42,406 nt of DNA from a bacterium (GCA_021790215.1 JAJYIG010000003.1:1-42406); one strand, 5' to 3'; positions 3,302 through 20,257 are shown, numbered from the stretch's first letter. Notes: a model not told the origin generated them from the letters alone. Numbers and translations: made by a program.

Positions 3302-3318
3302 CTTCATGAAATCTTAAT
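3302..3318 (+). promoter_or_regulatory. Putative OmpR-type tandem box 3 (CTTCAT-N5-CTTAAT), autoregulatory
   Basis: 10 nt upstream of TATAAT (3329-3334), 6 nt before response regulator ATG. Confidence 0.65.
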
Positions 3319-3340
3319 GATTTTTTAATATAATACGCTC

Positions 3341-4003
3341 ATGTGTATTCTAATTGTTGAGGACGAAAGGCGTCTTTCGAATATTATAAAAAGAGGCCTT
3401 ACCGAAGCTGGTTTCGCAGTCGACCAAGCTTTTGATGGCGAGGAAGGTAGTTACCTAGCTGAGGAGGAAGATTACGATCTAATTATTCTTGACTTGATGC
3501 TGCCCAAAGTTGACGGGATTACGGTATGCAAGAATCTTCGCAAGAACGGTGTTAAAACACCAATTATAATCCTTACCGCCAAATCCTCTATTGAAGACAA
3601 ACTTCAGGGGTTAGACAGTGGAGCTGACGATTATCTTACCAAACCATTCTCTTTTTTGGAACTTAAATCGAGGATTCATGCACTCATTAGAAGAAGCTCT
3701 AAAGAAGCCACTCCGGCCCTCACAATTGAAGACCTTACTCTTGATCCAATAAAACATTCTGTAGTAAGAAATGGCGAGTCTGTTAATCTCACTCCAAAAG
3801 AATTCTCTATTCTAGAGCTTCTTATGCGCCATAGGGACGAGGTGATAACAAGGTCAATGATAATAGAACATGTTTGGGATTATAACTACGACGGAATGAG
3901 TAACGTAGTTGACGTCTTTCTGACTACACTGCGGCGCAAAATAGATTCTAAAGCCAATAAAAAGCTAATCCAAACCATACACGGTGTTGGATATAAAATT
4001 TGA
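3341..4003 (+). CDS. OmpR-family response regulator (CusR/CzcR-like)
   Basis: VEDE, LDLMLP phosphoacceptor, GADDYLTKPF, C-terminal wHTH ending TIHGVGY. Confidence 0.95.
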   Translation: MCILIVEDERRLSNIIKRGLTEAGFAVDQAFDGEEGSYLAEEEDYDLIILDLMLPKVDGITVCKNLRKNGVKTPIIILTAKSSIEDKLQGLDSGADDYLTKPFSFLELKSRIHALIRRSSKEATPALTIEDLTLDPIKHSVVRNGESVNLTPKEFSILELLMRHRDEVITRSMIIEHVWDYNYDGMSNVVDVFLTTLRRKIDSKANKKLIQTIHGVGYKI

Positions 4004-4007
4004 TAAT

Positions 4008-5366
4008 ATGAACACAAAAGGAATTAGATTTAAGATTATTTCTTGGTTCACTGTAACTCTTTTTCTGGTTGTCACTACTACTTTTGCCTCCTTTTATCTA
4101 ATTACTAGACAAATCCTTTTTGCACAGGTAGATAGTGAACTTAAAAATCACTCACAGAAGTTCGTACCGGCATTAACTAATAGGACACAGATTAAAAACA
4201 TAGATTTTAGTGACACACCCGGGATGGTTGTTACACTTTTGGACCAGAACGGAAGTGCGCTGCAAAGTTCCTTGAGCTTAAATAGCCCATTTGTTTCATA
4301 TAAATATCCTTTTAGCGTGGTAGAGAATAGCCCCGAACCTGTTTTTATAGACCAAAGTATAAGCAATATGCCAATGAGATTTATTGCCGTTCCAGTTAGA
4401 GATGGAGATAAACTATTAGGCGTTGTGCTCGTAGCCCACCCAATTGATGTGATTCAAAAGTCATTAAATATTCTGATAGTCGCTCTTGCCGCACTCTTAG
4501 TACTACTTATTTTCCCCATTGTAATCATTGGTAACTTCCTGGCTGGAAAAATGGTAAAACCGCTGACCGAAGTGGTCAATAAAATGCAACATATAAGCTC
4601 CGAAAATCTTGATGAGAGAGTAAATGTCCCCAAGACTAAAGATGAACTACAAAGTCTTGGTATTACGTTTAATAGCCTTCTCGATCGTCTACAGGATTCT
4701 TTCAGAAGGGAAAGACAATTTATTGGAGACATGGCTCATGAGTTAAAAACCCCCATTGCTACTTTAAAAAGTGAGATAGAGTTATCGCTTTCAAAAAATA
4801 GGACAATTGATGAGTACAGAAAAACCTTAGAAAGTTCACTAATCGATACGAACAGGTTGTCAACCTTAACGGGAAACATTTTAGATTTGGCTTGGACCAG
4901 GGCACAGAAAAACTCGGGGAAGAAATTTAGTTTGTCTGATTTGATAAAGGAGATGGGGGAAATTGCAAATAAACTGGCACTTCAAAAGGAGATAACCATC
5001 AAAACCGACATTGGCGATAATGTTTTTATTACAGGTTTCCCCGATAAAATGGGACGAGCAGTATTAAATATCTTGGATAATGCTATCAAATTCACCCCAA
5101 AAGGCGGGGTGGTATCATTAAATCTGTATAAAAAGGGCAATAAGGCTCAGATAGAAATCAAGGATACAGGAATTGGGATTCCAGCAAAGGAACTTCCACA
5201 CATTTTCGAGAGATTTTATAGAGGGACCAATGAGAATAAAGCTACAGGTACCGGATTGGGACTGGCGATTTCCAAAGGAATTATAGAAATGCACAATGGA
5301 AGTATTAATATTAAGAGTAAGGTCGGAGTAGGGACAATCGTAACCATAATCTTAATGAATTCTTAA
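4008..5366 (+). CDS. Sensor histidine kinase (HAMP-HisKA-HATPase)
   Basis: Two TMs, DMAHELKTP H-box, NILDNAIKF, DTGIGI, GTGLGL; start moved to ATG 4008, just after the regulator stop. Confidence 0.95.
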   Translation: MNTKGIRFKIISWFTVTLFLVVTTTFASFYLITRQILFAQVDSELKNHSQKFVPALTNRTQIKNIDFSDTPGMVVTLLDQNGSALQSSLSLNSPFVSYKYPFSVVENSPEPVFIDQSISNMPMRFIAVPVRDGDKLLGVVLVAHPIDVIQKSLNILIVALAALLVLLIFPIVIIGNFLAGKMVKPLTEVVNKMQHISSENLDERVNVPKTKDELQSLGITFNSLLDRLQDSFRRERQFIGDMAHELKTPIATLKSEIELSLSKNRTIDEYRKTLESSLIDTNRLSTLTGNILDLAWTRAQKNSGKKFSLSDLIKEMGEIANKLALQKEITIKTDIGDNVFITGFPDKMGRAVLNILDNAIKFTPKGGVVSLNLYKKGNKAQIEIKDTGIGIPAKELPHIFERFYRGTNENKATGTGLGLAISKGIIEMHNGSINIKSKVGVGTIVTIILMNS

Positions 5367-5367
5367 T
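5351..5367 (+). promoter_or_regulatory. Putative OmpR-type tandem box 4 (CTTAAT-N5-CTTAAT)
   Basis: 11 nt upstream of TACTAT (5379-5384), 6 nt before ATG 5391. Confidence 0.65.
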
Positions 5368-5390
5368 CCGAATTCAGATACTATTTAACA

Positions 5391-5750
5391 ATGGATTTAC
5401 AAAAACTGCTCGTCACAATTTTTAGTTTTGGAGGCATTGCTTTTACCTACTGGTTCTTTTTGATGAAAAAAGAGAAAGAGGTAGAAGCTTCCGATTCAAT
5501 AAATATAACAGTTAATGGTGGTTATAATCCTGAGGTTATATCAATACCGTTTGGTAAAACTACAATTTTGAATTTCACACGAACAGATCCAACAGAATGC
5601 CTGAATGAAATTGTCTTAGGGGACTTCAATATCAGACGAGAACTTCCTTTAGGTAAAAAGATAGCTATAAAACTCGATCCCAAGAAAAAAGGAGAATTTG
5701 GATATTCGTGCGGGATGAATATGTATCATGGAAAAATCGTCGTCAAATAA
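5391..5750 (+). CDS. Membrane-anchored cupredoxin-domain protein (CupA-like)
   Basis: [23 protein letters not shown] motifs; directly upstream of copA. Confidence 0.9.
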
Positions 5751-7974
5751 TCAAACAACAAAAACATATCCAATTAAAGGAATGCACTGTGCAAGCTGCG
5801 TTCGAGTGATTGAACGTGCACTGTCCGTCGTTCCAGGGGTGTCAAAATGTAATGTTAATCTGGCAACTGAAAAGGCAACCGTTGTTTTTGACCAAAATAA
5901 AGTTACAAACGACACGATAGCAAATGCTGTCAAAAATGTTGGGTACGAGGCAATTGTTGATCAAAAAATTGAAGAAAAGGACGAACTTCAGCAAGAAAAA
6001 TTAAAGGAACTAAAAGCCCTAAGAAACAAAGTAATCATTGGGCTTTCACTTGGAATCTTAATTCTTTGGGGAAGCTTCCCTGGCCTAATGCACACAGCCC
6101 CAATGATATTACAGAACTTTTGGGTACAAATGCTTTTGGCTACTCCGGTTCAGTTTTGGGTTGGTTGGGAATTTTATAGAGCGACAATAAACTCGCTGCG
6201 CCACAGGACTGCCAACATGGATACATTGGTTACTATTGGCACAACAGTTGCCTATTTATACTCTGTTGTTGTAACGATATTTCCCGCTCTAATAAGTGGA
6301 ATTACCAATAATCCAATGCCTTATTTTGATACGTCTACAATTATTATTGGTCTAATTCTTCTTGGAAGATATTTTGAAGCCAAAGCAAAAGCCGGTACCA
6401 GTGAAGCTATAAAAAAACTCATCGGGCTACAGGCAAAAACAGCCAGAGTTATTAGAAATGGCGAGGAAGTAGATATTCCTATTGATCAAGTAAAAATCGG
6501 AGATGTTATACGAGTTAGACCCGGAGAGAAAATTCCAGTTGACGGAATAATTCTAGAAGGAGAAAGCTCGATTGATGAATCGATGATTACCGGGGAAAGC
6601 TTGCCTGTAGACAAAATTAAAGGTGATACAGTGGTTGGCGCCACAATGAATAAAACCGGCTCCTTTACTTATAAAGCGACCAAAATCGGGGAAGATTCAA
6701 TGTTGGCTCAGATTATTAAATTAGTCGAAGATGCCCAAGGTAGCAAAGCCCCTATCCAACGTTTGGCAGATTTGGTTTCTTCATATTTTGTCCCAATAGT
6801 ATTGATGCTGGCTTTTGTCACTTTTGCTATTTGGTTTGATTTTGGACCAACACCTGCTTTTCTTTTTGCGCTTCTTAATACCGTTGCCGTTCTTATCATC
6901 GCTTGCCCTTGTGCCATGGGTTTGGCGACTCCTACTGCGATTATGGTTGGAACAGGAATTGGCGCTGAGAATGGAATTTTAATTAAAGATGCAGAAAGTC
7001 TGGAAATTGCCGGAAAGATAAAATCTGTCGTTTTTGATAAAACGGGAACTTTAACCAATGGAAAACCAGAGGTTACTGATGTAATACCGGGTGCGGGTTT
7101 TACTAAAAATGACATTTTAAGGATTGCAGCTTCTATTGAAATTAAATCTGAACATTCTCTTGCCGAAGCAATTGTATCGAAAGCTAAACTCGAAAAAATA
7201 AAATTGGTAGATTTAGAAAAATTCCAAGCCATTCCGGGCCACGGAGTTTCTGGTCTAATTAGCAAAAATAAGATCCTTTTTGGTAACGGAAAGTTAATGG
7301 ATAAAGAAGGTATTGTTTTTTCAAAACAGAAAGGTGATATTGAAAATCTTGAAAACGAAGGTAAAACTGTAATGCTTCTAGCTCAGAGTAAGCAATTAAT
7401 AGGTCTTGTTGCCGTTGCCGATACTTTGAAGGAAAGTGCTAAGAATGGTGTAGATAAACTCAAAAAGATGGGAATAGAAACGATTATGTTTACAGGTGAT
7501 AATACTCGCACGGCTAACGCCATTGCTAAAAGAGCTGGTGTCGATAAAGTTCTTGCAGAAGTATTACCGGGGGATAAGGAATCAGAAATAAGAAAAATTC
7601 AGGCTATTGGTAAAAAAGTTGCTATGGTGGGTGACGGAATTAACGATGCACCCGCTCTTGCTGCCGCTGACGTCGGAATTGCAATGGGCACAGGAACTGA
7701 TGTCGCGATTGAGGCCGCGGACATTACACTTATCAACAAAAATCTTGAGTCTGTTGCCAATGCTATCGAACTTTCAAAAAAGACTATGCGGACTATCAAG
7801 ATGAATTTAATTTGGGCCTTTGGCTATAACATTATCTTAATCCCAATAGCGATGGGGGTGCTTTATCCGTTTTTTAGAATTTTACTTAATCCGATATTTG
7901 CTTCGGTTGCGATGGCTTCAAGTTCTGTCTCAGTTGTAACCAACTCCTTGTTACTTAAGAGATTTAAAATTTAA
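5728..7974 (+). CDS. copA: Cu(I)-translocating P1B-1 ATPase
   Basis: [32 protein letters not shown] and MASSS metal-site motifs. Confidence 0.95.
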
Positions 7975-7976
7975 AA

Positions 7977-9098
7977 ATGGAAGAAAATTCAAAGAGCTTA
8001 TTTAAAATACTTATTGGAGTCTTAGTTGTACTTGGAATTGTCACGAGCTATTTGTTAATCAAATTATTCTTGGTTACAAACACATCAATTGATTTAACCA
8101 AACTGGCACCCGGTAATACGAATCTTATTCCAATTTTTCTGACAGGGCTTTTAACTGGGGGTCTGACTTGTCTTGCGGTTCAGGGTGGTCTTTTGGCTTC
8201 CACTATTGCAATGCAGGAAGAGGAGAGGTTGGAAGAAAAAGGTAAGAAAAGCGGAAATGCGGTTCCAATATTGTCCTTTTTAATAGCAAAACTAATTGCT
8301 TATACGATTCTTGGATTTTTGTTGGGTTGGTTTGGATCACTTTTCCAATTATCCTTAACTGCTCAAGTAATAATGCAGTTTGTCGTGATCATTTTTATGA
8401 TAGGCACAGCTGGAAACATTTTAGAAGTTCACCCAATATTCAGATATTTTGCGATTCAACCTCCCAGATTTTTAACTAAAATAATTAGGAATCAATCCAA
8501 AAGTAAAAACATTTTCGCCCCTGCTTTTTTAGGGGCGCTTACAATTTTCATTCCTTGCGGAACAACCCAGGCGATGATGGCGTTGGCAATTGGAAGCGGA
8601 AAACCAATCTTGGGGGCTTCCATCCTTTTTTCATTTATCCTAGGCACGACCCCCCTCTTTTTCATTCTTGGTTATTTTGCAACAAAGCTAGGAGATACTT
8701 ATCAAAAAAAATTCATGAAAGTAGCCGCAGTCGCATTGATTTTACTATCAATATTTAATCTCAAAAATGCACTAGGGCTCGCCGGAATCAATATTGGATC
8801 GATCAAACCTTCAAATACTGGCGATGTTGCCGTTAATAATCCTACTATAGAGATAACTTCGAGTGGTTATTCTCCGGGAAGTATAAACGTTAAATCTGGA
8901 GCTAAAATCAAGCTAACATTAAATAACACTACGGGCGGTGGATGTATCCAATCCTTTGTAATACCGAAACTAGGAGTTCAGCAAGTTGTTAGAGAAGGAA
9001 CAACTCAAACTGTGGAATTTACCGCACCAGACCAAAAAGGCCAGATAGCTTTTATGTGCGGCATGGGAATGTTTAGAGGAGTAATTAATGTTATATGA
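7977..9098 (+). CDS. DsbD_2/TauE-like membrane protein with C-terminal cupredoxin domain
   Basis: LTCLAVQGG, FIPCG, F.LGT.P motifs; C-terminal FMCGMGMFRG. Confidence 0.85.
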   Translation: MEENSKSLFKILIGVLVVLGIVTSYLLIKLFLVTNTSIDLTKLAPGNTNLIPIFLTGLLTGGLTCLAVQGGLLASTIAMQEEERLEEKGKKSGNAVPILSFLIAKLIAYTILGFLLGWFGSLFQLSLTAQVIMQFVVIIFMIGTAGNILEVHPIFRYFAIQPPRFLTKIIRNQSKSKNIFAPAFLGALTIFIPCGTTQAMMALAIGSGKPILGASILFSFILGTTPLFFILGYFATKLGDTYQKKFMKVAAVALILLSIFNLKNALGLAGINIGSIKPSNTGDVAVNNPTIEITSSGYSPGSINVKSGAKIKLTLNNTTGGGCIQSFVIPKLGVQQVVREGTTQTVEFTAPDQKGQIAFMCGMGMFRGVINVI

Positions 9099-9322
9099 GT
9101 AAAATTAGAGAGGCGAAATTCAAAATAGACGGTATGCACTGTGTAAGTTGCGCCATGAATATTGATTTTGATTTGGAAGATTTGGACGGAATTCACAGCG
9201 CAAAAACCAGTTATGCTAAATGCGAGTGTCAAGTTAAATATGACGAGGAAAAAATAAACCATAACGATGTGATATCACAAATTAATAAAACAGGATATAA
9301 AGTTAAGGAGGTGAGTATCTGA
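9095..9322 (+). CDS. copZ: Copper chaperone / HMA domain protein (CopZ-like)
   Basis: IDGMHCVSC, 75 aa, ends TGY. Confidence 0.85.
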   Translation: MSKIREAKFKIDGMHCVSCAMNIDFDLEDLDGIHSAKTSYAKCECQVKYDEEKINHNDVISQINKTGYKVKEVSI

Positions 9323-9323
9323 G

Positions 9324-9515
9324 ATGATGAATTTTGGGTATTATGGAGGAGATTGGAATAATGTACCTAACTATATGCAACAAATGATGCAGAACTATTA
9401 TGGAGGGATAGCTCCTTTTGGAGGACTTCTGGGTTTTTTACAAGTTGTAATTTGCCTATTATTAATAGTTTTGCTGGTCGTGTTAATTAGATATTTTTGG
9501 TTGAAGGCCAAATAA
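9324..9515 (+). CDS. Small Met/Gly-rich membrane protein
   Basis: AAGGAGGTG RBS; one C-terminal TM. Confidence 0.7.
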   Translation: MMNFGYYGGDWNNVPNYMQQMMQNYYGGIAPFGGLLGFLQVVICLLLIVLLVVLIRYFWLKAK

Positions 9516-9524
9516 AAAAAACAC

Positions 9525-10829
9525 CTAATGTGCTCTAAGTGAAGTTATGTTCCCATTCTGGACGAATAGAGGAAAGTTAAAAAGATTAAATAGCTCCCGT
9601 TTTTCTTCTATATTTTTATTTGTTATTACATATCTCGCATAATCTCGTATATCCCAAATTCTTGAGTTTGGATTAATATCTTGTTGGAGAAAAATTGCCT
9701 CTCTCATTCTTTTGAATTCGTTTAGACCCTCTTGAATTTTATCTGTTAAGACTAACTCATGAGAATGGGCAATATACATAAAATTGATAAGTTTCAGCAA
9801 GCTTCTTTCTAATTCTTCTTCAGAAATGTACGGTTCCTTACAAGTGTGATCAATTTGCCTCGAGCAGTGATAGTAAATATGATATCTAGGCTCCTTATTT
9901 AATCTTTCTCTATATCTATCTTCTCCAACAATACTTGCTTTACAATTCGCACATTTGAGCAATCCCCTATATGTAAAGGTCTTTGATCCCCATTTAGATT
10001 TTTTGGGAACTACTAATTTTTTCTGAACTTTATCGAATATTTCTTTTGTGATCAAAGGCGGGTAGGATCCTTTGTACCAATTTCCGCTTTTTAACGGAAA
10101 TTCAAACTCTCCGTAATAAAACGGGTTTCTTAACATTAAATATATCTGACTAAGGCTAACCGGAATACCTGATTTGTTAGAAAATTTTATTTCGTCTAAC
10201 CATTTTTTGATCTTTCTACCACTTGCATTTTCTTCAATAACTTTTGTGAACATTTGGGTAATAATTGGGCTTCTTTCCGGATCAAGTATTACGTCTTTTA
10301 TGCCATTAAAACTTCTATTCATATATCCAATTGGGCTAGGCCCCGGTCGCCATCCCATCTCGCATTTTGCCCTGATTCCTCGTTTTACATTTATTCCTTT
10401 TTGGTCATTCTCGAGTTTTGCCTGGGAGCAAAGAATCATTAAAAGAAACTTCTCATTGGGATTATTTGAAAACATTTGTGAGAAAGTTCTAATTTGTAAA
10501 AGCTTTCCCTGATCCATTAAGTCGACTAAATTTCCCAAATCGCCAGCGTTACGTGACAATCTATCTGGTGCCCATGTAAGAATTCCGTTAAATCTTTTTT
10601 CTCGGATGTCGCTAAGGAGTTTCATGAACATCGGGCGTTGTCCTGAATCTTTTGCCGAGTGGCTTTCCTGTAGAATTTCAGTTACCTTCAAACCTTCTTT
10701 AATCGCAAGAGCCTGCATCTCCTTTAATTGGCTATCAATACTCATTACTTGCCGTTCGTCACTTTCTGATGACTTTCTTGCATACAAACAATAGTTTATA
10801 GGTTGTTCTAAGGGTAGGGTTGTTTCCAT
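9525..10829 (-). CDS. Large serine recombinase (resolvase + recombinase + Zn ribbon)
   Basis: YARKSS catalytic Ser, DRLSRN, recombinase domain (PIGY, LRNPFYYG), CANC...YHCS...C zinc ribbon. Confidence 0.95.
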   Translation of the reverse strand: METTLPLEQPINYCLYARKSSESDERQVMSIDSQLKEMQALAIKEGLKVTEILQESHSAKDSGQRPMFMKLLSDIREKRFNGILTWAPDRLSRNAGDLGNLVDLMDQGKLLQIRTFSQMFSNNPNEKFLLMILCSQAKLENDQKGINVKRGIRAKCEMGWRPGPSPIGYMNRSFNGIKDVILDPERSPIITQMFTKVIEENASGRKIKKWLDEIKFSNKSGIPVSLSQIYLMLRNPFYYGEFEFPLKSGNWYKGSYPPLITKEIFDKVQKKLVVPKKSKWGSKTFTYRGLLKCANCKASIVGEDRYRERLNKEPRYHIYYHCSRQIDHTCKEPYISEEELERSLLKLINFMYIAHSHELVLTDKIQEGLNEFKRMREAIFLQQDINPNSRIWDIRDYARYVITNKNIEEKRELFNLFNFPLFVQNGNITSLRAH

Positions 10830-10866
10830 CAGGATGGAGAGTACCGCAAAAATTGTAAAAGTCTAG
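10796..10866. repeat. Recombinase-start site, copy R1 (promoter plus first 11 codons; dyad TCCATC-AG-GATGGA)
   Basis: 61/71 ungapped identity to 14347-14417; exact 39-bp core 10804-10842 = 14355-14393. Confidence 0.93.
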
Positions 10867-10875
10867 AGGTATAGC

Positions 10876-13512
10876 CTAAGTATTAGTTCTTTTCAGTAGT
10901 CGGGCAGAGTTTAGAAAAACAGCGACATCAGGGAATGATTGGGCGGCAGCTGCAAATACTGGAGGTAAAAATCCGATTGAGGCTAATCCCATTCCTACAA
11001 TATCAAAACCTATTCCTAAGGCGATATTTTGTTTAATCGTGCTAAAGGTTTTCTTGGCAATAGCAATTGCTTCCGGGAGTTGATTCCAATCATCTCCCAT
11101 CAGCACCACATCGGCGGCTTCTAGGGCAATATCAGTACCGGCTGCACCCATACCGATGCCCACATCGGCCTGTGAAAGTGAAGGTGCGTCATTTACTCCG
11201 TCACCCACCATTGCTACTTTGTACCCTCGTTCTTGTAAATCTTTTACCACCTGAATTTTGTCTTCAGGTAATAATTCCGCCTGACAATCAATGCCTAAAG
11301 CAGATGCCACTGTTTGAGCAGAGTGTTTATTATCTCCGGTCAGCATGATGATCTTTTTAAACCCGAGTTTCTTTAGTGTTTCTATCGCCGGTTTCACTTC
11401 GTTACGGATAATATCAGTGATTGCCAACAAACCCAAAACACCCTCTTTTCTATTGGCTAAGATCAAGACGGTTTTTCCTTGTTTCTCAGATGCTTCAATC
11501 AGGTCTTTTGTTTTAAAGTTGATGGTAATACCCTGTTCATGGAGCAATTTTTGATTACCCAAATAATGGGTTTGCTTTTTAATACTGGCGATCACCCCTT
11601 TACCGGCAAGAGTCGAAAACTTGTCCGGTTCGGATAGATGTACAGCCAACTCAGCCGCCTTATCAAGCACGGATTTAGCCAAAACATGCTCTGAATACCG
11701 TTCCACTGATGCAGCAATCGAAAGGATGTCATCGCTTGTCAAATTAGAAACAGAAATAATATCGGTTACCTGCGGTCTGCCAAAGGTTAAGGTGCCGGTC
11801 TTGTCCACCAATAGCACATTTACTTTAGCTAACAGTTCCAGATAACGACCACCTTTAATGAGAATCCCTTGCTTGGCCGCTCTACCTGTTGCCGCTACCA
11901 CAGCCATAGGAGTCGATAAGGCCACGGCACAGGGACAAGCTACTACCAGTACGGCAATTGTTGCAGATAAGTTTCTGGTGAATAAATATGTCGCGGTGGC
12001 AACTAGGATTACCAAAGGCAAGTAATAACCGCTAAACCGGTCAGCAAACTTTTGAATAGGTGCCTTATTTGTTTCAGCCTCTTCAACCAGATGAATAATT
12101 TTACCCAAAGTAGTATCGGCTCCTACCCGGTTTACCTTGATCTCCAAATGACCTGATTGATTCATTGTGGAAGCAAAAACCTGACTTCCCAGTTCAATCC
12201 GAACAGGTGTAGATTCGCCGGTAATTGTCGCCTGGTCCACCGCACTGACCCCTCGGGAGACAATACCGTCAACAGGAATTCTCTCACCGGGTTTAACCAC
12301 TATCGTGTCTCCAACGATAATATCTGTAATATTGACTTCAACTTCCTTACCTCCTTTTTTAATCCACGCCGTGGTGGGAGCCAATTTAATAAGTTCATTG
12401 ATTGCTTGGCGGGAACGGTCAACAGTAAAACTTTCCAAAAAATGAGCAATGCGCACAAAAAATACAATTAATAATGCGGCAGATAGCTCATGTGAGACGG
12501 AAGCCGCGGTTATACCCACAGTCATGATCAAATCGGTATTGACCTCCTTGTGTAGTAGGTTTTGCAGGGCACTTTTAAAAATCGGATAGCCTCCAACTAA
12601 AACAGCACCAATCAAAAGCCAGTTCGGAATGGGAACAAGTACAGCCTCAAGAATACCAAGTCGTTCAAAGACAATTTCGACTAACAAAAGAACGGCTAAA
12701 AAACCAACAAAAGCAAAAGTAATGATGCCGTCAATCTTGATTCCCTGGGTTTTTGCATCGTTTACCACCTTAAGCCCTGAGCGTTGAATCAACTGTTTAA
12801 TATCAGCCAGCGAAATTATATTTTCGTCATAAGTCAGAGATACTTTTTCAGCAGTAAAAAGAAAGTTATAAGTACTGATACCCGTCTGTGTTTTAAGCAC
12901 TTTCTCCAAAGGAAGAGCGCATTCAGGGCAATCTAATCCTTTCACTTTTAGACTTATCTCTTTTATCGCTTGAGTCTTTGCCGTTGAGTCGATAGTTAGC
13001 CCTGCAACATTTTCAGTCGATTGACGGCTACACTGTCCTTCAGCACACGTATTACAGTTATTATCTTTTCTAATTCGATAAAAACCATATATAACAGAAA
13101 GCAAGGTTAAACCGGCAATAATTGGTTTGGTAACACCCAAAAACGAGACTCCAAATATCCCGGCATAGATAGCCAGCATGGGTGATCCGCAGCAGCCAAT
13201 TAAAAAACAGCCGGCAATCGATAAAATGGAAACCAAGGACAGTCCACCAAAAACGCCTTTCAGATTGCCAGGAGAGGAACGGCGACGGTCTAGATAATTA
13301 ATAAAGGTAAATGTCATAAATGCCGTAGCCAAAGCATAGGAAAAGCCAAGGAAATAGTCCCTTTGATCAAAATATCCTTGAATAATTAGTGGAATCTGGC
13401 TGTTATCGACCACCCAGGGAGAAAAAAGTGTTTTGCTTAATATTCGAAAGCCAAAGTGGAGAACAAAAACGGCTATAAATACGACAAATGGGAGGTAATG
13501 TCTAAATTTCAT
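10876..13512 (-). CDS. Heavy-metal P1B-type ATPase with extra N-terminal Cys-rich membrane domain
   Basis: GLDCPEC HMA, TGES, CPC, DKTGT, GDGVNDAP; N-terminal ~170 aa with TMs, GCCGSP and CNTCAEGQC. Confidence 0.92.
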   Translation of the reverse strand: MKFRHYLPFVVFIAVFVLHFGFRILSKTLFSPWVVDNSQIPLIIQGYFDQRDYFLGFSYALATAFMTFTFINYLDRRRSSPGNLKGVFGGLSLVSILSIAGCFLIGCCGSPMLAIYAGIFGVSFLGVTKPIIAGLTLLSVIYGFYRIRKDNNCNTCAEGQCSRQSTENVAGLTIDSTAKTQAIKEISLKVKGLDCPECALPLEKVLKTQTGISTYNFLFTAEKVSLTYDENIISLADIKQLIQRSGLKVVNDAKTQGIKIDGIITFAFVGFLAVLLLVEIVFERLGILEAVLVPIPNWLLIGAVLVGGYPIFKSALQNLLHKEVNTDLIMTVGITAASVSHELSAALLIVFFVRIAHFLESFTVDRSRQAINELIKLAPTTAWIKKGGKEVEVNITDIIVGDTIVVKPGERIPVDGIVSRGVSAVDQATITGESTPVRIELGSQVFASTMNQSGHLEIKVNRVGADTTLGKIIHLVEEAETNKAPIQKFADRFSGYYLPLVILVATATYLFTRNLSATIAVLVVACPCAVALSTPMAVVAATGRAAKQGILIKGGRYLELLAKVNVLLVDKTGTLTFGRPQVTDIISVSNLTSDDILSIAASVERYSEHVLAKSVLDKAAELAVHLSEPDKFSTLAGKGVIASIKKQTHYLGNQKLLHEQGITINFKTKDLIEASEKQGKTVLILANRKEGVLGLLAITDIIRNEVKPAIETLKKLGFKKIIMLTGDNKHSAQTVASALGIDCQAELLPEDKIQVVKDLQERGYKVAMVGDGVNDAPSLSQADVGIGMGAAGTDIALEAADVVLMGDDWNQLPEAIAIAKKTFSTIKQNIALGIGFDIVGMGLASIGFLPPVFAAAAQSFPDVAVFLNSARLLKRTNT

Positions 13513-13931
13513 TGGGGTTTGAGCTGTGAGGCCTTAATTATTAACTTACCCGAGCCGTCACGGAACACTGTGCCTGAAACTTGGACAAAATCTTTAACAT
13601 TGGGTAGGGTTCCTGAGTAACTTACCGGAATCTGATTGATGGCGCAAGTGACTACCCCGCAATTGGCAAATTCCTTGTTATCAATAATCACCAGTGTTTG
13701 GCTTTCCGGATAAACAAAGGAAACTACCCCTCTAAGATTTATTGATTTATCAAGGTATTGGTTGACATTGTCTGCCATAGTATTAACGTCTAGGACGGTT
13801 CCTGAATTTATTTGGCTAAGGTTGTTCGTACTATTTGTTGCTTTGATCAGCGTTTCGTATTTGACGATTAAGCCAACTCCAATAAGCAGCATTATTATTA
13901 AAACGATAGATAAATATTTTGTTGATTTCAT
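13509..13931 (-). CDS. Membrane-anchored OB-fold-like protein with CxxxxC
   Basis: N-terminal TM, LRGVV...V.VSG.V pattern, CGVVTC; stop overlaps ATPase start; start set to ATG 13931. Confidence 0.7.
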   Translation of the reverse strand: MKSTKYLSIVLIIMLLIGVGLIVKYETLIKATNSTNNLSQINSGTVLDVNTMADNVNQYLDKSINLRGVVSFVYPESQTLVIIDNKEFANCGVVTCAINQIPVSYSGTLPNVKDFVQVSGTVFRDGSGKLIIKASQLKPQ

Positions 13932-13936
13932 AATTT

Positions 13937-14266
13937 TTAGTATCTGGTACACTCAAAAATATTATTGGCGGTCAACTTCAAGATACTTTGCCCGAGTTTT
14001 ATCAGTTCGGCGATTTTTTCATCCACCAAACAATAAAAAACCTGTCTGCCGTCTTGTCTGCTTTGAACTAAGCCGCACTCCTTAAGACAACTTAGGTGGG
14101 CTGAAACATTTGGTTGTGACAAACCCGTAACTTCAACTACCTCATTCACTGACTTTTCTTTGTCGATTAAGGATTTAAGAATTGCCAAACGGGAACTGTC
14201 GGCAAAACCGTTAAAAAGACGGGCTTCTAGTTGGATAGTGTTTTGATTGGTGATATTACGACTCAT
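13937..14266 (-). CDS. ArsR/SmtB-family repressor (CmtR/CadC-like)
   Basis: ADSSRLAIL, SQPNVSAHLSCLKECGLV, GRQVFY, C-terminal Cys; start set to ATG 14266. Confidence 0.92.
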   Translation of the reverse strand: MSRNITNQNTIQLEARLFNGFADSSRLAILKSLIDKEKSVNEVVEVTGLSQPNVSAHLSCLKECGLVQSRQDGRQVFYCLVDEKIAELIKLGQSILKLTANNIFECTRY

Positions 14267-14320
14267 ATATATAATCGTGTAATTATATATCAATATATTA
14301 ATATTTTTTCAGATTGTCAA
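14267..14320 (-). promoter_or_regulatory. Sigma70 promoter and ArsR-type operator
   Basis: Minus-strand TTGACA(14320-14315)-N17-TATATT(14297-14292); 9-6-9 inverted repeat ATATATAAT-N6-ATTATATAT at 14267-14290. Confidence 0.7.
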
Positions 14321-14346
14321 TAACACTACATTTTATAAGTATTATG

Positions 14347-14417
14347 TTATGGGCTGTTCTAAGGGTAGGGTTGTTTCCATCAGGATGGAGAGTGCCGTAA
14401 GGATAGATGAAGTCTAG
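14347..14417. repeat. Recombinase-start site, copy R2 (encodes stub METTLPLEQPIT*)
   Basis: Direct repeat of 10796-10866; minus-strand ATG at 14380 gives 11 residues identical to the recombinase N-terminus, then T and stop. Confidence 0.93.
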
Positions 14418-14441
14418 TCACAAGAACAAAACTTATCATAG

Positions 14442-15950
14442 TTACCAGTTATCATCACTGTTGAAAGACAGTGAACGACTAATGCTTTCGTACGGGCCGA
14501 TACAAGGTACGAAATATACGTCAATACCCGGGGTGCTGGCCACTTCTAAGATTTTTAATAGAAGAAGTGAAAAAGCATCTGCCAAATCATCATGCCTTTC
14601 GATTCCGAATCCTGTTAACTGATTTATTAATTCTTCAGCGCCGTATCTTGGAAACCAAACTTTTCCTTGTTGAATTATATGAGTAACTAAAGCGAGTCTG
14701 GTTCTTTTGTCCTGGCCATGAATTTGGACTCCCTCGACGAGAATACTTTTGCTACTCAGATAATCAATGAAGGCTTTTTGATAACCGACCTCTTCGATAA
14801 ATAACTTCGTTTGTTCCCCATTTACTACAGTTTTTGAAAGTGAAATAGCAACATCAACCGTTGTCGGAAAATCCATCCTTTTATTTATAGGGTTTGGTAG
14901 GATATACACACCCAACTTTTCTCCCCGACCAAACATATATGCAGAAACCATTGCGGTGTAATCTGCCGATTCTCTTTCAGAGATAGCAAGATCAATTCCT
15001 ACTGCTGCAAATTCAAAATCATCTGCATCTGGGGAAGGGAGATTATCATAAAATTTAATCCACTCACGTTTAACAAGTCTATCCTCGTCTGAAATAATTT
15101 TGAGTAAATATTCACGATAGAAAGCTGACTCCTGCAAAAATGTTTTCTTTAGTTTTTCGACATCTTCCATGGTGGGGTATTTGGCGGGCCACAAAATATT
15201 TTTACCGTCATCAATAAGGGGATATTCAAAAAATTCTCCCGATAATCTTCCCTCATAGATAGATTTTTTAAATCTCATAATTAAACTGTCCTCGTGAAGA
15301 AGATTTCCGATTACCAAGGTCTTTGTATTTTTATCTCCTACTGGAACAATTTCGGCGTTAAACCATGTATTGGTTCGGTCCCGTCCCTCTTTGGTTTTAA
15401 CGCTGTTTATATCTTCAATATCATCACAAATGATTAGATCGGGTCTATATTGTTCATGCCTTATCCCGCGGATACTTTGTTCGGTAGAAACAGCCGCAAT
15501 CCTTGCTCCGAACTTTGGGATTACAATTGAGTTGGATCCCCACTCGTCTTCCGGTGATTCAAATGGCCCGATATCGGCCTTAAGTAAGTCGTTACTTTCC
15601 AGTTCCCGCTTTATATTTTCCAAGTGCAGTTTTGCCTGCGCTTGGGTTTGGCTGACAATTAATACAAACTTTTTTTGCTGAATTCCTACGATTGACCAAA
15701 TCACATAGGAAAGAGTGACCAGAGTTGACTTTGCCGATCCGCGAAACGCCACAAGAACGGCGAACTCAACATTTTCTTCAGTCAATTTAAATATCTCATG
15801 ATGGAATGGTGCAAACTCACAGTTTATGTAGTGGGGTAGATAAAGTGAGAAAAACCAATAATGGCTTTTCCTGGCAAGAGCACGCCTGATTTTTCTGTCT
15901 CTCCTGATCTTATTCAACTCTTCCTGACCGAGTTGTGGAAAATAAGTCAT
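14442..15950 (-). CDS. Phage-type terminase large subunit
   Basis: Walker A AFRGSAKST, RGIR, Walker B IICDDIED, RNase-H nuclease GIDLA ... HDDLADA. Confidence 0.9.
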   Translation of the reverse strand: MTYFPQLGQEELNKIRRDRKIRRALARKSHYWFFSLYLPHYINCEFAPFHHEIFKLTEENVEFAVLVAFRGSAKSTLVTLSYVIWSIVGIQQKKFVLIVSQTQAQAKLHLENIKRELESNDLLKADIGPFESPEDEWGSNSIVIPKFGARIAAVSTEQSIRGIRHEQYRPDLIICDDIEDINSVKTKEGRDRTNTWFNAEIVPVGDKNTKTLVIGNLLHEDSLIMRFKKSIYEGRLSGEFFEYPLIDDGKNILWPAKYPTMEDVEKLKKTFLQESAFYREYLLKIISDEDRLVKREWIKFYDNLPSPDADDFEFAAVGIDLAISERESADYTAMVSAYMFGRGEKLGVYILPNPINKRMDFPTTVDVAISLSKTVVNGEQTKLFIEEVGYQKAFIDYLSSKSILVEGVQIHGQDKRTRLALVTHIIQQGKVWFPRYGAEELINQLTGFGIERHDDLADAFSLLLLKILEVASTPGIDVYFVPCIGPYESISRSLSFNSDDNW

Positions 15951-16369
15951 TTTTGCCCCTCCTTTTCTACTGCCGGAATTAGTGAAGCCAGCTGTAAGGC
16001 TTTTGTCACCAACGCTTCCTGTTCAGGGGTTAATGTTTCGTTTTGATTCTTTAAATTCGCTGTAACTTCAACCTTGGTTGCATAAGCTTGATGGTGGTGC
16101 TTTAACCAGAAAATAATAGCTGTCATGTTTTGATCCTTTATGGCCGTCAGGAGCTGGCTCTCCGCCATATCATTCACTAGAGCAGACCCTGCTTCCAGGG
16201 CCAACTCCGCTTCTTTTGCAAACTTTTCGTCATTTATTTTCCATCTGTAATATGTAGCCCTGGCTATCCCGATTTTTCTGCATGCAACCTCAACTACGGG
16301 AGTCTCCTTTAATTTTTCCAGTAAATCTTTCTTCTGAATTGATTGTCTTTTGATAATTGTATTTGTCAT
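15947..16369 (-). CDS. HTH protein, probable terminase small subunit
   Basis: ACRKIGIARATYYRW HTH, TAIIFWLK motif, ATGA overlaps with both neighbours. Confidence 0.75.
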   Translation of the reverse strand: MTNTIIKRQSIQKKDLLEKLKETPVVEVACRKIGIARATYYRWKINDEKFAKEAELALEAGSALVNDMAESQLLTAIKDQNMTAIIFWLKHHHQAYATKVEVTANLKNQNETLTPEQEALVTKALQLASLIPAVEKEGQK

Positions 16370-17715
16370 TGCATTTTTACGGCTTTTAGCCCGGTCAGGT
16401 TCTCCCATCTTTTTTTAATGACCTCAGCGTAAACCGGCGACTTTTCCATCACATAACATCTTCTATGCATCTTTTCGGCCGCAATTAGGGTACTACCGGA
16501 ACCGCCAAAAGGTTCAATTATTAAATCATTCCTTTTAGTTAGAACTTTTATATAGGGGATAAGTATTTCAATCGGTTTAGTTCCAAAAATTATTCCCTGT
16601 CCAGAACTTTTTTCATCTGATGCCTTATATTCAATAAAATCAGTCGGACAGTATTTCTTCCCTTTCTCATAACTTTCCCATGTTGGTTTACCGGATGTAG
16701 CGTAAAGTGCGGTCTCATATTCCTCTTGAAGTAGGGGTTCACCCTCAGGATCTTTATTCAGATTTATATTTCCTGAGGTTCCCAGCATAGCGAAATCGTA
16801 TTTATTAAAAAACTTATATTTTGCCGCAAATCCCTGCATTCTGTTTGGTAGATGCCAGATAATCGTGTTTCGATATTTCCAATGTTTTTCTAACTCATTC
16901 CAAATAGTTCTTAAGTTCTTCGGATTTTCATAAACAATAATTGAAAAATTCGGTTTTTGGATTTTGGAAACGTTTTCCATCCATTTTTCCGTAAAATCAG
17001 GTGGTAGAACATCGGTCTCCAAATATCTTCGATCCCTTTTGGCCCCGAATCCTGTAATGGCTCCGTTATATTTTTTCTTTCCATGTAGGTAATCCAAGAT
17101 GTAGGGTGGATCGGTGAAACACATGTCTGCTTTTTCATTACCCACTAGTTTCAACACATCAGCTTCAACTGTGGAGTCACCGCACATCAATCTCGAATCC
17201 CCAAGCAAATAGATATCACCTTTTTGAAAATCGATCTTGTTTATATCCAGTTTTTTGAGCTCCTTTTCCAAATCAAATTGTTCAGGTGTTGAATCGATTT
17301 CAAATATTTCGTCAAGGTCTTCTGAAGAAAATCCGACCACCGAAAGAAAGTCTTCGTCAAATTTGGCAAGAAGTTCCCAATCCCACTCTCCGACATTTTT
17401 ATTGAGCCTCAAATTTAACTCCTTTTCCTTCTCAATATCCGGAATGTTTACATAAACTACGGGTATTTCTTTAAATCCCAGGTCTTTAGTAACTTTTAAT
17501 CTAAAATGCCCACCAATAACAACATTCAACCTATTCGGGGCTTTGTTTACTATTATCGGATCCACCAATCCGAATTTTTTGATGCTTGAGGATAATCCGT
17601 TAATTGCCTCAGTTGACCACTTTCTGGGATTATATTCAGCAAATTTAAGCTCTTGTATGTCAACATCTACGATTTTCAGCTTGTCAGATACTGTTTCCAT
17701 AAGCATCTGAAGCAT
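16366..17715 (-). CDS. ParB/Srx-like domain fused to N6/N4 DNA methyltransferase (beta order)
   Basis: YNPRK..SIKKFGLVDPII..GGHFR ParB-like part; TDPPY followed by PFGGSGST; exact start uncertain (17715/17706/17700). Confidence 0.9.
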   Translation of the reverse strand: MLQMLMETVSDKLKIVDVDIQELKFAEYNPRKWSTEAINGLSSSIKKFGLVDPIIVNKAPNRLNVVIGGHFRLKVTKDLGFKEIPVVYVNIPDIEKEKELNLRLNKNVGEWDWELLAKFDEDFLSVVGFSSEDLDEIFEIDSTPEQFDLEKELKKLDINKIDFQKGDIYLLGDSRLMCGDSTVEADVLKLVGNEKADMCFTDPPYILDYLHGKKKYNGAITGFGAKRDRRYLETDVLPPDFTEKWMENVSKIQKPNFSIIVYENPKNLRTIWNELEKHWKYRNTIIWHLPNRMQGFAAKYKFFNKYDFAMLGTSGNINLNKDPEGEPLLQEEYETALYATSGKPTWESYEKGKKYCPTDFIEYKASDEKSSGQGIIFGTKPIEILIPYIKVLTKRNDLIIEPFGGSGSTLIAAEKMHRRCYVMEKSPVYAEVIKKRWENLTGLKAVKMQ

Positions 17716-17758
17716 AAAACACCGAAAATCTTATTAAAACGGGAACGGACGGGGAAAA

Positions 17759-18340
17759 TTAATTCGGAAGCTTTGAAATTCCTAACAATCTGTAGCCTTT
17801 TTGCTTCTCTCTGTATAAATCAATCTGTAATCCCGAGTCTCTCAGGGCATCTTTAAGATCCCTTCGTACATATCCTATTCCTTTCATCGGGTTCATAAGA
17901 TCAAGTTCTCTAATCGCTTCAGCATCAGACACATAATTCTCACCATCCGTTAAAAGTAGCTTCAAAAGCTTTCCGTGCTTGGAATTGGTTGTAACAGTAT
18001 CAACCGGCTGGCTCTTAAAAAAGAATCTGCCCTCAACCGATACTGAGAGATCGGTAATACCGCCAATACTGATAACTTCCGCCTCCTGCACGTATGTATC
18101 GGGTTCAAAATTTATTGCAAGCGGATTTATTGCAAGTATTAGACTTTTGGCCAAGCTTATTTGCATTTCCCTCAAACTTTTTGCAAACTCTGCAAATGAC
18201 GGGGTGAGTGCGCTTCGGATTGCCTCGGCACATTGCCTGGCTACCGCATTCTGCATCTCCATCAATTGATTACTAAGCCCCAGTGAAAAATTCATCATCG
18301 GATTTGGATATGCCGCAAGCGTGTTTGACTCTGATTTCAT
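17759..18340 (-). CDS. Hypothetical protein with C-terminal winged-HTH-like domain
   Basis: KLLKLLL....YVS....I.E...RRDLKD.L.......KGYRL resembles OmpR-type wHTH; TAGAAT 6 nt before ATG. Confidence 0.6.
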   Translation of the reverse strand: MKSESNTLAAYPNPMMNFSLGLSNQLMEMQNAVARQCAEAIRSALTPSFAEFAKSLREMQISLAKSLILAINPLAINFEPDTYVQEAEVISIGGITDLSVSVEGRFFFKSQPVDTVTTNSKHGKLLKLLLTDGENYVSDAEAIRELDLMNPMKGIGYVRRDLKDALRDSGLQIDLYREKQKGYRLLGISKLPN

Positions 18341-18554: not shown

Positions 18555-19178
18555 ATGACTTTATATAAAATCGATCCACAATTAACTTCCATTCAATTAA
18601 TAAAGGAAAACTTGAATTTAGCCAGAAGATTAATTGGAAATTCTCAGAAAAAAATTATTCCATTTGACCCAAACGACACGCTTTCTTTTTACAAGGGAAG
18701 GGCAAAACATTTACAAACCATGGCGTTTCTTGGAATAACAACGGAATATCTTTTGAAATTAATTGTATCCAAACGAGGTTATTCAATTCAGGAAGTAGAT
18801 TATATTAAGGGTGTGGGTAAACATATTGATATTAAATATGCCGAAAAGACTATTTCATATGAGAAATCCGTCTCATTATTTAAGAAGTCAAACCCACATA
18901 ATTACTACAAAAATACCAAAGTATATGAGTTTAATACCCACAATATAGATTATCAGTATTCATATTTAGGATATAAGCGGATTGATCCGGAAACTTGTGT
19001 AACTTTGATACAAAAAATAAGGAACAACTACCTACATAAAGTTGATTCCCATGGAGAATGGAACGGCATAATTTGGTATGTTTATGATTTTATTGTTTGG
19101 TTGGCAAAAAAAGAATTCGGCAGTAGTTTTTCAAGATACAGGTTAATTGGAAGTGACGAGATAAAAAAGCTTTTTTGA
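18555..19178 (+). CDS. Putative HEPN-like protein
   Basis: TEYLLK (ExxxK) in N-terminal helix and RNNYLH (Rx4H) near C-terminus; AT-rich. Confidence 0.55.
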   Translation: MTLYKIDPQLTSIQLIKENLNLARRLIGNSQKKIIPFDPNDTLSFYKGRAKHLQTMAFLGITTEYLLKLIVSKRGYSIQEVDYIKGVGKHIDIKYAEKTISYEKSVSLFKKSNPHNYYKNTKVYEFNTHNIDYQYSYLGYKRIDPETCVTLIQKIRNNYLHKVDSHGEWNGIIWYVYDFIVWLAKKEFGSSFSRYRLIGSDEIKKLF

Positions 19179-19182: not shown

Positions 19183-20061
19183 TTAGCTCATTAGCTTATC
19201 GGGGAGTAGACTATCCTTTGTCCATTTTCCATCATAAAAAGCAGAATTATTCTCTGAAATTCTTGTAATATCTCTGTCGCCATTTTTGTCTTTAGTTTCT
19301 TCAAAACGATTGATACCAAAATCAACAGCAGCCATTTCTGCATTCTTGGCTGTGTTTGAAAAACCCTTTTTTAAAAGTTCGTTTGAATCAATCCAGGCGA
19401 AATATTCGTGAAGTTTGTGTTCCGGACCAAATGTATTTGTCAACCAAAGATTATTTTCTTTCGATTTGAACTGAAGAATAACCCTCCAAGCTTGATTCTT
19501 TATAGAAACGGGGTGTGTGGCGTAAGCCTCGATTCTTAGACCCGGGGTCAATGTCTTACTATATTTACCATCCCACCAATTCGGATTTTGGACCTCCCGG
19601 AATTTGCCATTCTCAAACTCGAAAGTAAATGTGTCACCGTCGTTAACCAAGTTCTTATCGATATATTCTTTGATCTTTTCAATTGGAAGATTGTCCAAAT
19701 CATCTTTGAGACCGGTTCTGGCAAATAAACTGAGTCCGGAAACTGCAAAGGCAAATCCTACCCATTCATTTTCTTTTTCGGCGGTAACCTTCCCTATGAC
19801 GCCAAAATTTCCCGTCATACTGGCATACCCTTCGCTGTACCATGCGATGGAGTAACCTTTATATTTAACGACTTGGCTATATTGAATAAGTTTTGGATTT
19901 ACTTTAACAAACTCGAGAATATCATCCTCCTTATAGCGCCTGTCTCCGCGGTCGTTTACTTTGATAGCTACCAGTTTTCCTTCCCGATCCCAACGTCTTA
20001 GGGTTTCTGGGTTTACCTTAATTAGAGCAGCTGCCTCATTAATGTCTATGAGTTTGTCCAT
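19183..20061 (-). CDS. MerR/excisionase-type HTH fused to unknown domain
   Basis: INEAAALIKVNPETLRRWDREGKL...RGDRRY N-terminal HTH. Confidence 0.8.
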   Translation of the reverse strand: MDKLIDINEAAALIKVNPETLRRWDREGKLVAIKVNDRGDRRYKEDDILEFVKVNPKLIQYSQVVKYKGYSIAWYSEGYASMTGNFGVIGKVTAEKENEWVGFAFAVSGLSLFARTGLKDDLDNLPIEKIKEYIDKNLVNDGDTFTFEFENGKFREVQNPNWWDGKYSKTLTPGLRIEAYATHPVSIKNQAWRVILQFKSKENNLWLTNTFGPEHKLHEYFAWIDSNELLKKGFSNTAKNAEMAAVDFGINRFEETKDKNGDRDITRISENNSAFYDGKWTKDSLLPDKLMS

Positions 20062-20203
20062 ACGTATATTATCTTATACTAACTTATACATTTATGCAAG
20101 TGGCTTTTCTCTTTTATTGTGTCCCAAATGTCTCATTTAGCCTCGGGTGTGATACACTACTCTCAAGCGGTTATGGGCTCAGAAGGGCCTAGACCGAGAT
20201 GCT

Positions 20204-20257
20204 CAGCCAAGCAGTGCACCCCAGTGACCGAGACTTCTAGAATAGCCCAGAAACACC
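20204..20257 (+). repeat. Right island boundary (attR-like), copy 2 of direct repeat
   Basis: CAGCCAAG core plus 44/54 identity to 97-150; extra GACCGAGA copy at 20192-20199. Confidence 0.8.

Follow-up and report, generated by a model that had tools for sequence, protein, structure and literature searches.

A capsid-less terminase island in Patescibacteria and its possible role as a phage satellite

The contig JAJYIG010000003.1 (GCA_021790215.1), hereafter the window, is the whole stretch of DNA analyzed: a complete 42,406-bp contig (C12) of a Patescibacteria genome that we call G000 (993,967 bp in 80 contigs, rated 99.28% complete). It contains an integrated element in which genes for a large terminase subunit (TerL) and a small-subunit-like protein (TerS) are linked to those for a ParB-domain DNA methyltransferase (the methylase) and a large serine recombinase. 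The terminase set is intact and under selection, and together with the methylase and the recombinase it moves as a tRNA-integrating island that has no particle genes. We propose, with a probability of roughly 0.5, that this is a satellite-like island, one that supplies a terminase of its own and relies on a helper for capsids. An earlier annotation made from the sequence alone (the sequence-only reading) had arrived at a satellite-like or domesticated element; that designation stands with regard to the capsid-less locus and genome, the bounded tRNA island, the metal cargo, and the recurrence across the phylum, and it is the packaging by a helper that we infer.

A terminase module and its recurrence

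The genes named in the sequence-only reading are all present between positions 9525 and 18340, as judged from Pfam and PHROGs, and all are co-oriented on the minus strand (Table 1). The recombinase scores over the cut-off for each of its three Pfam domains (catalytic, recombinase, and zinc ribbon). TerL has matches to Terminase_6C (PF17289; 1.1e-5, 25.9 bits against a 22.6-bit cut-off) and to NCBIfam NF033889, which describes the N-terminal part of T7-type terminases (6.7e-18, below the equivalog cut-off), and its closest solved sequence is T7 gp19 (4bij; 3.7e-7), with the Walker A region aligned. Residues of Walker A (F69, R70, K74, S75, and T76, in AFRGSAKST) and Walker B (D176, D177, and E179, in DD.E), together with the carboxylates of an RNaseH-like nuclease (D320, E386, D454, D455, and D458), are conserved in a 28-sequence alignment; both sets of motifs are thus intact, as had been suggested, and enzyme activity is predicted. 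The TerS-like protein is just above the cut-off for PF13022 (7.5e-7; 29.7 versus 27.9 bits) and matches PHROG TerS families (best, 2.7e-8), and its structural model (pLDDT 81.8) gives weak fold matches, spanning E values of 0.13 to 1.8, to a protein of phage phBC6A51 (2ao9; probability 0.97, E 0.13) and Sf6 TerS (3hef; probability 0.57). The proposed ATGA coupling of the three genes can be read directly from the sequence: the methylase stop overlaps the TerS start at 16369-16366, and the TerS stop overlaps the TerL start at 15950-15947.

The lack of a recognizable portal, capsid, tail, primase, or relaxase, also remarked on in the sequence-only reading, holds in family searches of the window ORFs (53 by Pfam and 17 by PHROGs). 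Pfam found no portal, capsid, tail, primase, or replication-initiator family among 289 neighbor proteins (145 plus 144) selected from 28 loci, and phmmer searches seeded with portal and capsid proteins of sister phages gave matches in viral loci only, with none in genomic loci, in the window, or in ORFs of at least 80 aa from G000. A search of G000 for phrog_2662, phrog_12, phrog_10, PF05065, and PF04860 was negative, with control genomes positive; it covers these five families only, and highly divergent capsids are beyond its reach.

Relatives of the module are common in the phylum. TerL relatives number 3,451 proteins at an E value of 0.001 or less among 8,000 candidates scored; the best 120 are 57-100% identical, and some are on contigs as long as 906,714 bp. 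When the phylum was sampled evenly, a TerL match at 1e-20 or less was obtained in 47 of 401 genomes (43 of 339 high-quality ones); the count includes G000, a weak match of phage type (G395), and three matches that are partial. The reading frame is intact in 49 of the 53 matches listed in this survey, with two having an in-frame stop and two being short internal fragments. We compared 31 genomic loci as 20-kb neighborhoods (20 survey places, nine other contig loci, and three same-family islands, minus L049, a duplicate of L006), with genes called as greedy longest ORFs rather than by a trained gene finder; the record titles of two of them, L002 and L003, read 'uncultured Gammaproteobacteria'. 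In 30 of the 31 loci, the methylase is found upstream of terL in the same orientation, at most three genes away; downstream of terL, 25 loci have a recombinase that is likewise co-oriented, and in ten of them it is the immediate neighbor. None of the 31 has a portal, which is the outcome anticipated when a synteny survey was put forward as a check on the sequence-only reading. The recombinase of L142 sits in the neighboring locus L141. Protein clustering identifies only the methylase, TerS, TerL, and the recombinase as widely common to the loci, and these four genes are the conserved core of the element family.

The core genes are mobile with respect to their surroundings. Loci L004 and L005, from metagenome-assembled genomes (MAGs) titled Falkowbacteria and Uhrbacteria, are 92.7% identical over 5,122 nt and have unrelated flanks, and the common stretch is the four-gene core, starting ~485 nt upstream of the methylase and ending where the recombinase gene does. 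The genes are also mosaic, with TerL and the recombinase of the window being 90% and 61% identical to those of L002, and 83% and 87% identical to those of L003. The TerL tree does not track host families, and islands of the same family fall in different parts of it.

We interpret the segment at ~143-20203 as a ~20-kb integrative island that its own large serine recombinase has inserted at the tRNA-Gln 3' end. It is an insertion because the genome G408, of the same family, has the site without interruption, with tRNA-Gln, the repeat, and the flank that follows position 20249 in the window all contiguous. The 46-nt attachment (att) repeats at either end are imperfect (38/46 identical) and were aligned with those of relatives. 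Contigs in two of four sequencing runs, X1 and X2 of X1 to X4 (contigs only, one study, mine-drainage labels), bridge the right island junction. Just inside the right repeat, the degenerate tRNA-like segment at 20110-20203 is conserved in alignments at the right ends of related islands, and we read it as the probable tRNA-like P-arm of the attachment site of the circular form; Rfam assigns it to no family, tRNA being the only gathering-threshold match in the window and the rows at 19900-20500 being chance-level. Genomes G416, G424, and G410 of the same family have islands at the same tRNA-Gln. The G416 island (~23 kb) has its recombinase directly beside terL and an att repeat ~190 nt from the recombinase with no cargo between them, and its recombinase, TerL, TerS, methylase, and winged-helix genes all lie within ~5.3 kb; the G424 island is 14.4 kb, and in that of G410, metal-resistance genes spanning ~17 kb separate the recombinase from terL. 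More broadly, tRNA genes (Gln, Ser, Leu, Asn, or Lys/Glu) are on the recombinase side in nine of 27 loci scanned (L002, L003, L041, L044, L046, L047, L048, L050, and L056).

Selection on the core was estimated from pairwise dN/dS values (Nei-Gojobori). For TerL, these are 0.040 between the window and L002 (dS 1.58) and 0.046 between L004 and L005, and the latter pair gives 0.083 for the methylase, 0.058 for the recombinase, and 0.126 for TerS. Most other pairs are synonymously saturated, yet their proteins are 42-90% identical. From these comparisons, the core genes are under strong purifying selection, with function maintained.

Phage relatives and the satellite reading

Judged from INPHARED, no deposited phage is close to the island TerL: 404 records match by tblastn, all at less than 60% identity, and the 25 rows listed are 23-31% identical. 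In IMG/VR, 16 of the 18 loci with a TerL at least 41% identical have the capsid-less layout, the other two (L073 and L077; 42-46%) having a portal after terL. IMG/VR loci at 34-40% TerL identity encode a portal of 624-771 aa, a protease, and a major capsid protein, with the portal matching phrog_2662 at 1e-106 to 1e-113 in L079, L080, and L082; the TerLs of portal-bearing phages are thus 34-46% identical to that of the element. In a quick maximum-likelihood search (LG+G4, 62 TerLs), the eight portal-bearing rows form one clade (SH-aLRT 98), as a separate lineage in the TerL phylogeny that had been suggested as a check, within a 55-row clade (SH-aLRT 99) that holds all element TerLs; the base of this larger clade is unresolved, and monophyly of the elements is not implied.

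Within the phylum sample, the phrog_2662 portal family is found in 14 of 401 genomes. Only two of the 47 TerL-positive genomes have it, G016 on another contig together with a protease and capsid, and G395 in a prophage. Two prophages, in G358 and G190, contain a methylase, a 451-460-aa ORF at the terminase position, a portal, a protease, and a capsid gene, and in G358 a serine recombinase is upstream of the methylase, whereas it follows terL in the elements. The methylase-terminase arrangement is therefore native to the phages of the phylum, and it was retained by the elements without the remaining genes. The phylum thus has phages with both a recognizable portal and a related terminase, which are potential helpers.

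In the mechanism that we envisage, a tailed phage that belongs to the sister lineage and has a phrog_2662-type portal would, on infecting the cell, derepress the island, which would be excised by its own recombinase. The island TerS would recognize island DNA, and the island TerL would dock on the helper portal, cut the DNA, and pump it into phage-supplied procapsids, with the methylase marking or protecting the DNA or gating cleavage at the packaging site. In a recipient, the recombinase would reinsert the island beside a tRNA gene. The C-terminal tail of TerL may be a docking peptide; in 34 of 47 element TerLs, the last residue is F, L, W, M, or I, preceded by a variable linker that is often rich in glycine or acidic residues. 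Several distant TerL branches have an ending like M-D-x-K-F.

A number of observations weigh against this proposal. The five-family search found no helper phage or portal in the window's own genome, and G016 is the sole element-bearing genome of the phylum sample with a portal-capsid contig. No replication module is present to account for the concatemers that headful packaging would need. All 18 of the IMG/VR loci with at least 41% TerL identity lack evidence of particle origin. Contigs of runs X1 to X4 yielded no reliable excision or circle joint on positions 500-20499, a span outside of which a direct circle or empty-site joint would lie; the joints listed there have short sides (21-31 nt) and are in the ATPase and other cargo, and none was counted as excision. 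Terminal overlap was found in 0 of 16 whole contigs. Lastly, a subfamily in records titled Saccharibacteria and Paceibacterota has a 396-aa TerL (L008:9995-11185, L009:9995-11185, and L010:3369-4559) that retains the ATPase half (query residues 24-295) but has no nuclease domain; the methylase and TerS genes still come before it, and it fits a canonical terminase poorly.

It is unlikely, in our estimation, that the module is instead mainly an anti-phage device, in which TerS and TerL compete for or mis-load phage procapsids, or cut phage DNA, such that infection is aborted and any transfer is incidental or by other routes. The islands are rich in defense systems, the core is under strong purifying selection with no capsid gene at all, and known satellites interfere with their helpers too. 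Against it, TerL and TerS match no PADLOC defense model (none for TerL, and for TerS only chance-level rows, at E values of 0.003-0.006), and the steady linkage to a recombinase and att sites, with the four-gene unit shared between distant MAGs, points to selection for transfer. Such a role also overlaps with that of a satellite rather than excluding it.

Capsid-independent DNA processing, with TerS, TerL, and the ParB-methylase cutting, resolving, or translocating island DNA for maintenance or for phage-free transfer (such as by competence uptake or cell contact), is likewise improbable. It would account for the 45 of 47 TerL-positive genomes with no phrog_2662 portal anywhere, for an island without replication genes, and for the conserved subfamily with only the ATPase half of TerL beside a ParB-domain methylase, as well as for the methylase being the most conserved core gene in 20 of 28 genomic loci (64-74% identity). 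Nonetheless, the nearest relatives are true phage terminases with a portal after them, the hydrophobic or aromatic TerL ends may be docking peptides, and, to our knowledge, the TerL motor is known to work only when docked on a portal.

That the module is a decaying remnant of a temperate phage, functionless after the loss of its structural genes, is highly improbable, and this explanation is largely refuted. It draws on the phylum prophages in G358 and G190, with their methylase-TerL-portal-protease-capsid order and, in G358, a serine recombinase nearby, and on a broken second recombinase on contig C69 of G000; the sequence-only reading had itself named close homologues in complete prophages, and relaxed selection, as signs of such decay. 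TerL homologues of 42-92% identity, however, sit in the same capsid-less layout, which recurs in 25 to 30 of the 31 genomic loci and in many families. Relaxed selection is refuted because the TerL dN/dS is ~0.04, strongly purifying, and conservation extends to the motifs of both the ATPase and the nuclease. None of the four genes is broken, their dN/dS values being 0.04-0.13 at saturated dS, there are zero structural-gene fragments among the 289 neighbor proteins, and the recombinase comes after terL rather than upstream of the methylase as in the G358 prophage. A complete but unrecognizable virus, whose structural genes would be too divergent to detect and lie either in the ORFs without a family or in another part of the genome, is scarcely credible: many neighbor ORFs lack a family and viruses of the phylum are poorly sampled, but the loci have only the four core genes in common, PHROGs readily found portal, protease, and capsid in the sister phages, and some islands are too small (the 5,122 nt common to L004 and L005, and the ~5.3-kb G416 module).

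The satellite-like island thus remains our preferred interpretation. If it is correct, a family found in about one in nine genomes of the phylum becomes a concrete, testable object, and a satellite type is added that has its own terminase with no capsid and no replication genes. It would also name a route by which ultra-small bacteria, with ~1-Mb genomes, exchange defense systems and, in the mine-drainage community indicated by the run labels, metal-resistance genes; the 46-nt att sites and compact recombinase would be candidate genome-engineering tools. More tentatively, though we think it quite possible, these could be the first phage satellites of Patescibacteria and have a new architecture, in which a ~5-kb four-gene unit supplies the full terminase holoenzyme, capsids and replication come from the helper, and the whole is a major shuttle for defense and metal resistance. 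A still bolder variant would make the nuclease-less TerL subfamily and its ParB-domain methylase a capsid-independent DNA-moving machine.

Comparison with described satellites

The island seems to act most like a phage satellite, yet, when descriptions are compared, it does not fit any of four known groups. Phage-inducible chromosomal islands that form capsids (cf-PICIs) are integrated satellites with their own TerS and TerL, as in the island family, and it is by terL that cf-PICIs are told apart from PICIs in the definitions of de Sousa et al. (2023, PMC10085698). In addition, cf-PICIs have their own genes for capsid, portal, protease, and head-tail connectors, and tails are all that they steal, whereas the island has none of these that we could find. 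The island family also differs from cf-PICIs in having a serine recombinase as integrase and no primase-replicase.

Classical PICIs and the pathogenicity islands of Staphylococcus aureus (SaPIs) are similar in being structural-gene-free chromosomal islands with TerS, regulators, and accessory cargo including defense genes. They encode a tyrosine integrase. They also encode a primase/replicase and use the helper TerL, whereas the island family has a serine recombinase, its own TerL, and a ParB-methylase, and is without a replication module; no primase or Rep family is present in the island or among the 289 neighbor proteins.

[quoted passage not shown] (2024, PMC10803314). The PICMI core, as outlined there, is three excision and replication proteins without packaging genes, roughly a mirror image of the packaging-plus-integration core of the island, and PICMIs integrate next to fis, unlike the island family, which is found at tRNA genes.

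Tycheposons, in the parts of the description by Hackl et al. (bioRxiv 10.1101/2020.12.28.424599) that concern their structure, are tRNA-targeted elements found in streamlined genomes, and their cargo modules are interchangeable; some, a minority, have large serine recombinases, and a packaging gene is present in those that are PICI-like. The island resembles them in its att repeat overlapping the tRNA-Gln 3' end and in the tRNA-like segment at its right end. By the same description, a replication module (polymerase, primase, or helicase) is a hallmark of Tycheposons, whereas the island has no such core gene, and the PICI-like members have terS or a capsid gene and no cargo, none being described there with terL and a ParB-methylase.

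The sister-clade phages (L073 and L077-L084) and the G358 and G190 prophages share with the elements a phrog_38 TerL (scored in L079, L080, and L082), a T7-type Walker A, and, often, a ParB/methylase gene upstream of the terminase. They differ in what follows terL, which is portal, protease, and capsid in the phages and cargo or the recombinase in the elements. We did not find an element of this kind described in the full-text literature, although supplementary tables of satellite and Tycheposon papers could list relatives. In the relevant part of the large satellite census of de Sousa et al. (2023, PMC10085698), Patescibacteria are not mentioned (0 occurrences of the name).

Cargo, regulators, and flanking sequences

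Features of the island and its boundaries are listed in Table 1.

Table 1. Features of the window in coordinate order (strand shown as a point where none applies)
Feature	Position	Strand	Basis and remarks
tRNA-Gln (CTG), integration target	29..102	+	ARAGORN; Rfam tRNA 54.9 bits
Left att repeat, attL-like	97..142	.	Includes the final 6 nt of the tRNA, with its CCA
Left cargo block, between attL and recombinase	376..9515	+	Pfam
Large serine recombinase, 434 aa	9525..10829	-	Resolvase 1.6e-20, Recombinase 4.3e-13, Zn_ribbon_recom 2.7e-8; phrog_95 integrase 2.5e-60
Direct-repeat copy B, true recombinase start inside	10783..10866	.	Family D1; translation METTLPLEQPINYC
Inserted cassette	10876..14293	-	Pfam; flanked by direct repeat D1
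P1B-type ATPase with HMA domain	10876..13512	-	E1-E2_ATPase 2.1e-53, HMA
Membrane-anchored OB-like protein	13509..13952	-	tRNA_anti-like 6.9e-4, weak, below Pfam cut-off
ArsR regulator	13937..14293	-	Pfam
Direct-repeat copy A, recombinase-start remnant	14334..14417	.	12 codons at 14380-14342, METTLPLEQPIT followed by a stop
TerL, 502 aa	14442..15950	-	phrog_38 2.6e-80, residues 18-470
TerS-like HTH protein, 140 aa from the ATGA-coupled start	15947..16369	-	ORF open back to 16408
ParB_N-domain N6/N4 DNA methyltransferase, 449 aa	16366..17715	-	N6_N4_Mtase 6.6e-20, ParB_N 2.7e-11, phrog_498 2e-80
193-aa protein, winged-helix-like C-terminal half, likely regulator	17759..18340	-	Atlas model
207-aa protein	18555..19178	+	ORF; no match in Pfam, PHROGs, PADLOC, or NCBIfam
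292-aa protein, excisionase/BldC/MerR-type HTH (residues 1-60) plus beta-rich domain	19183..20061	-	Pfam MerR_1/HTH_17
Conserved non-coding segment, right end inside island	20110..20203	.	Aligns column for column with tRNA-Gln
Right att repeat, attR-like	20204..20249	.	Native downstream flank then begins

A cassette separates terL from the recombinase in the window and is missing from the closest relatives, L002 and L003. A direct repeat of 84 nt, its copies 81% identical, lies on either side of it, and the 12-codon recombinase remnant is next to terL; the cassette therefore arrived by recombination at the 5' end of the recombinase gene, and terL formerly abutted that gene, much as proposed in the sequence-only reading and in line with the adjacency in ten of the 31 loci. 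The left cargo block encodes a DUF1573 protein, proteins of no assigned family, DUF5676, a response regulator and histidine kinase, a cupredoxin, a Cu-type P-type ATPase, a DsbD-cupredoxin, and an HMA protein.

Cargo slots in the family vary: some separate terL from the recombinase, others are on the outer side of the recombinase, and others again are upstream of the methylase. Other loci carry restriction-modification genes (Eco57I, type ISP, AlwI, and type III) and PLD-helicase, AIPR-Z1-DUF4420, Shedu, HEPN, PIN-TPR, TIR, CBASS (SMODS plus patatin), GmrSD, and RHS genes, and copper or metal modules are present in L009, L010, L044, and G410. An Ltp superinfection-exclusion lipoprotein is encoded between terL and recombinase in L052 and L055, LexA-like S24 repressors are beside the methylase in L050 and L052, small Cro/C1-type HTH proteins occur in L002, L003, and L044, and helicase domains (PIF1, UvrD, and HerA) are sporadic cargo. 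L044 (8311-11479) and L064 have tandem terL duplicates, 48-50% identical to the query, and a ParB-methylase plus a second methylase in place of the usual single one; adjacent TerL pairs are also among the matches in G182 and G229. tRNA genes (Phe and Arg) are found right after terL within the cargo slot of L053 (10935-11175) and L054 (8848-8999).

The 193-aa protein upstream of the methylase is a likely regulator of the module. Its designation as a winged helix-turn-helix (wHTH) protein in the sequence-only reading is plausible but not proven: residues 85-190 of an Atlas model align to the OmpR-type Trans_reg_C fold (TM 0.44-0.50 by query), and no family match was found in Pfam, PHROGs, PADLOC, or NCBIfam. 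In G416 and G424, homologues (31-38% identity) occupy the position just upstream of the methylase, and HMM iteration seeded with the three proteins found zero further members, indicating that the gene upstream of the methylase is not sequence-conserved beyond the family. The 292-aa protein is a candidate directionality factor or regulator; in its model (pLDDT 90.3), the HTH resembles BldC (Z 7.9), Pukovnik Xis (Z 7.8), and the RdfS excisionase (Z 7.3), and no convincing fold match was obtained for the C-terminal domain, which was barely probed because the N-terminal HTH filled the match list. It has 102 relatives, the named ones being from Patescibacteria lineages. A scan for promoters and terminators found sites no more numerous than in shuffles, with one 11-of-12 promoter-like site upstream of the ArsR gene.

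Elsewhere in G000, the second serine recombinase on C69 (697-1831) is 64% identical to that of the island and split into two frames, and contig C47 has two more distant serine recombinases. Contig C64 (310-462) has a second tRNA-Gln plus att repeat, 98% identical to window positions 1-153 and then unrelated. We rejected C64 as the empty site of the window island, since only window positions 1-153, and not the right flank, are common to both; because the window contig begins 28 nt before the tRNA and C64 repeats this stretch, the tRNA-Gln and att repeat probably broke the assembly. At the right end of the island, a transfer-messenger RNA (tmRNA) or riboswitch at 20110-20340 was considered and rejected from ARAGORN and Rfam scans. 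The tRNA-like right-end segment is present in two to four copies per genome in the relatives G408, G416, G424, and G428, and a further island-left-end sequence comes after it in G416, pointing to islands in tandem arrays. The gltX neighborhood (window 40241-42403) adjoins tRNA-Gln in L003, whereas in the window the two are at opposite contig ends and inverted, a layout that would indicate an inversion or rearrangement around the island. Outside of the island, positions 23021-28430 encode an ArsP permease, ArsR, thioredoxin, an MFS protein, DUF134, DUF5320, and MscL with a zinc ribbon, and these metal- and arsenic-type genes are in keeping with the mine-drainage label on the runs in which the sequence occurs.

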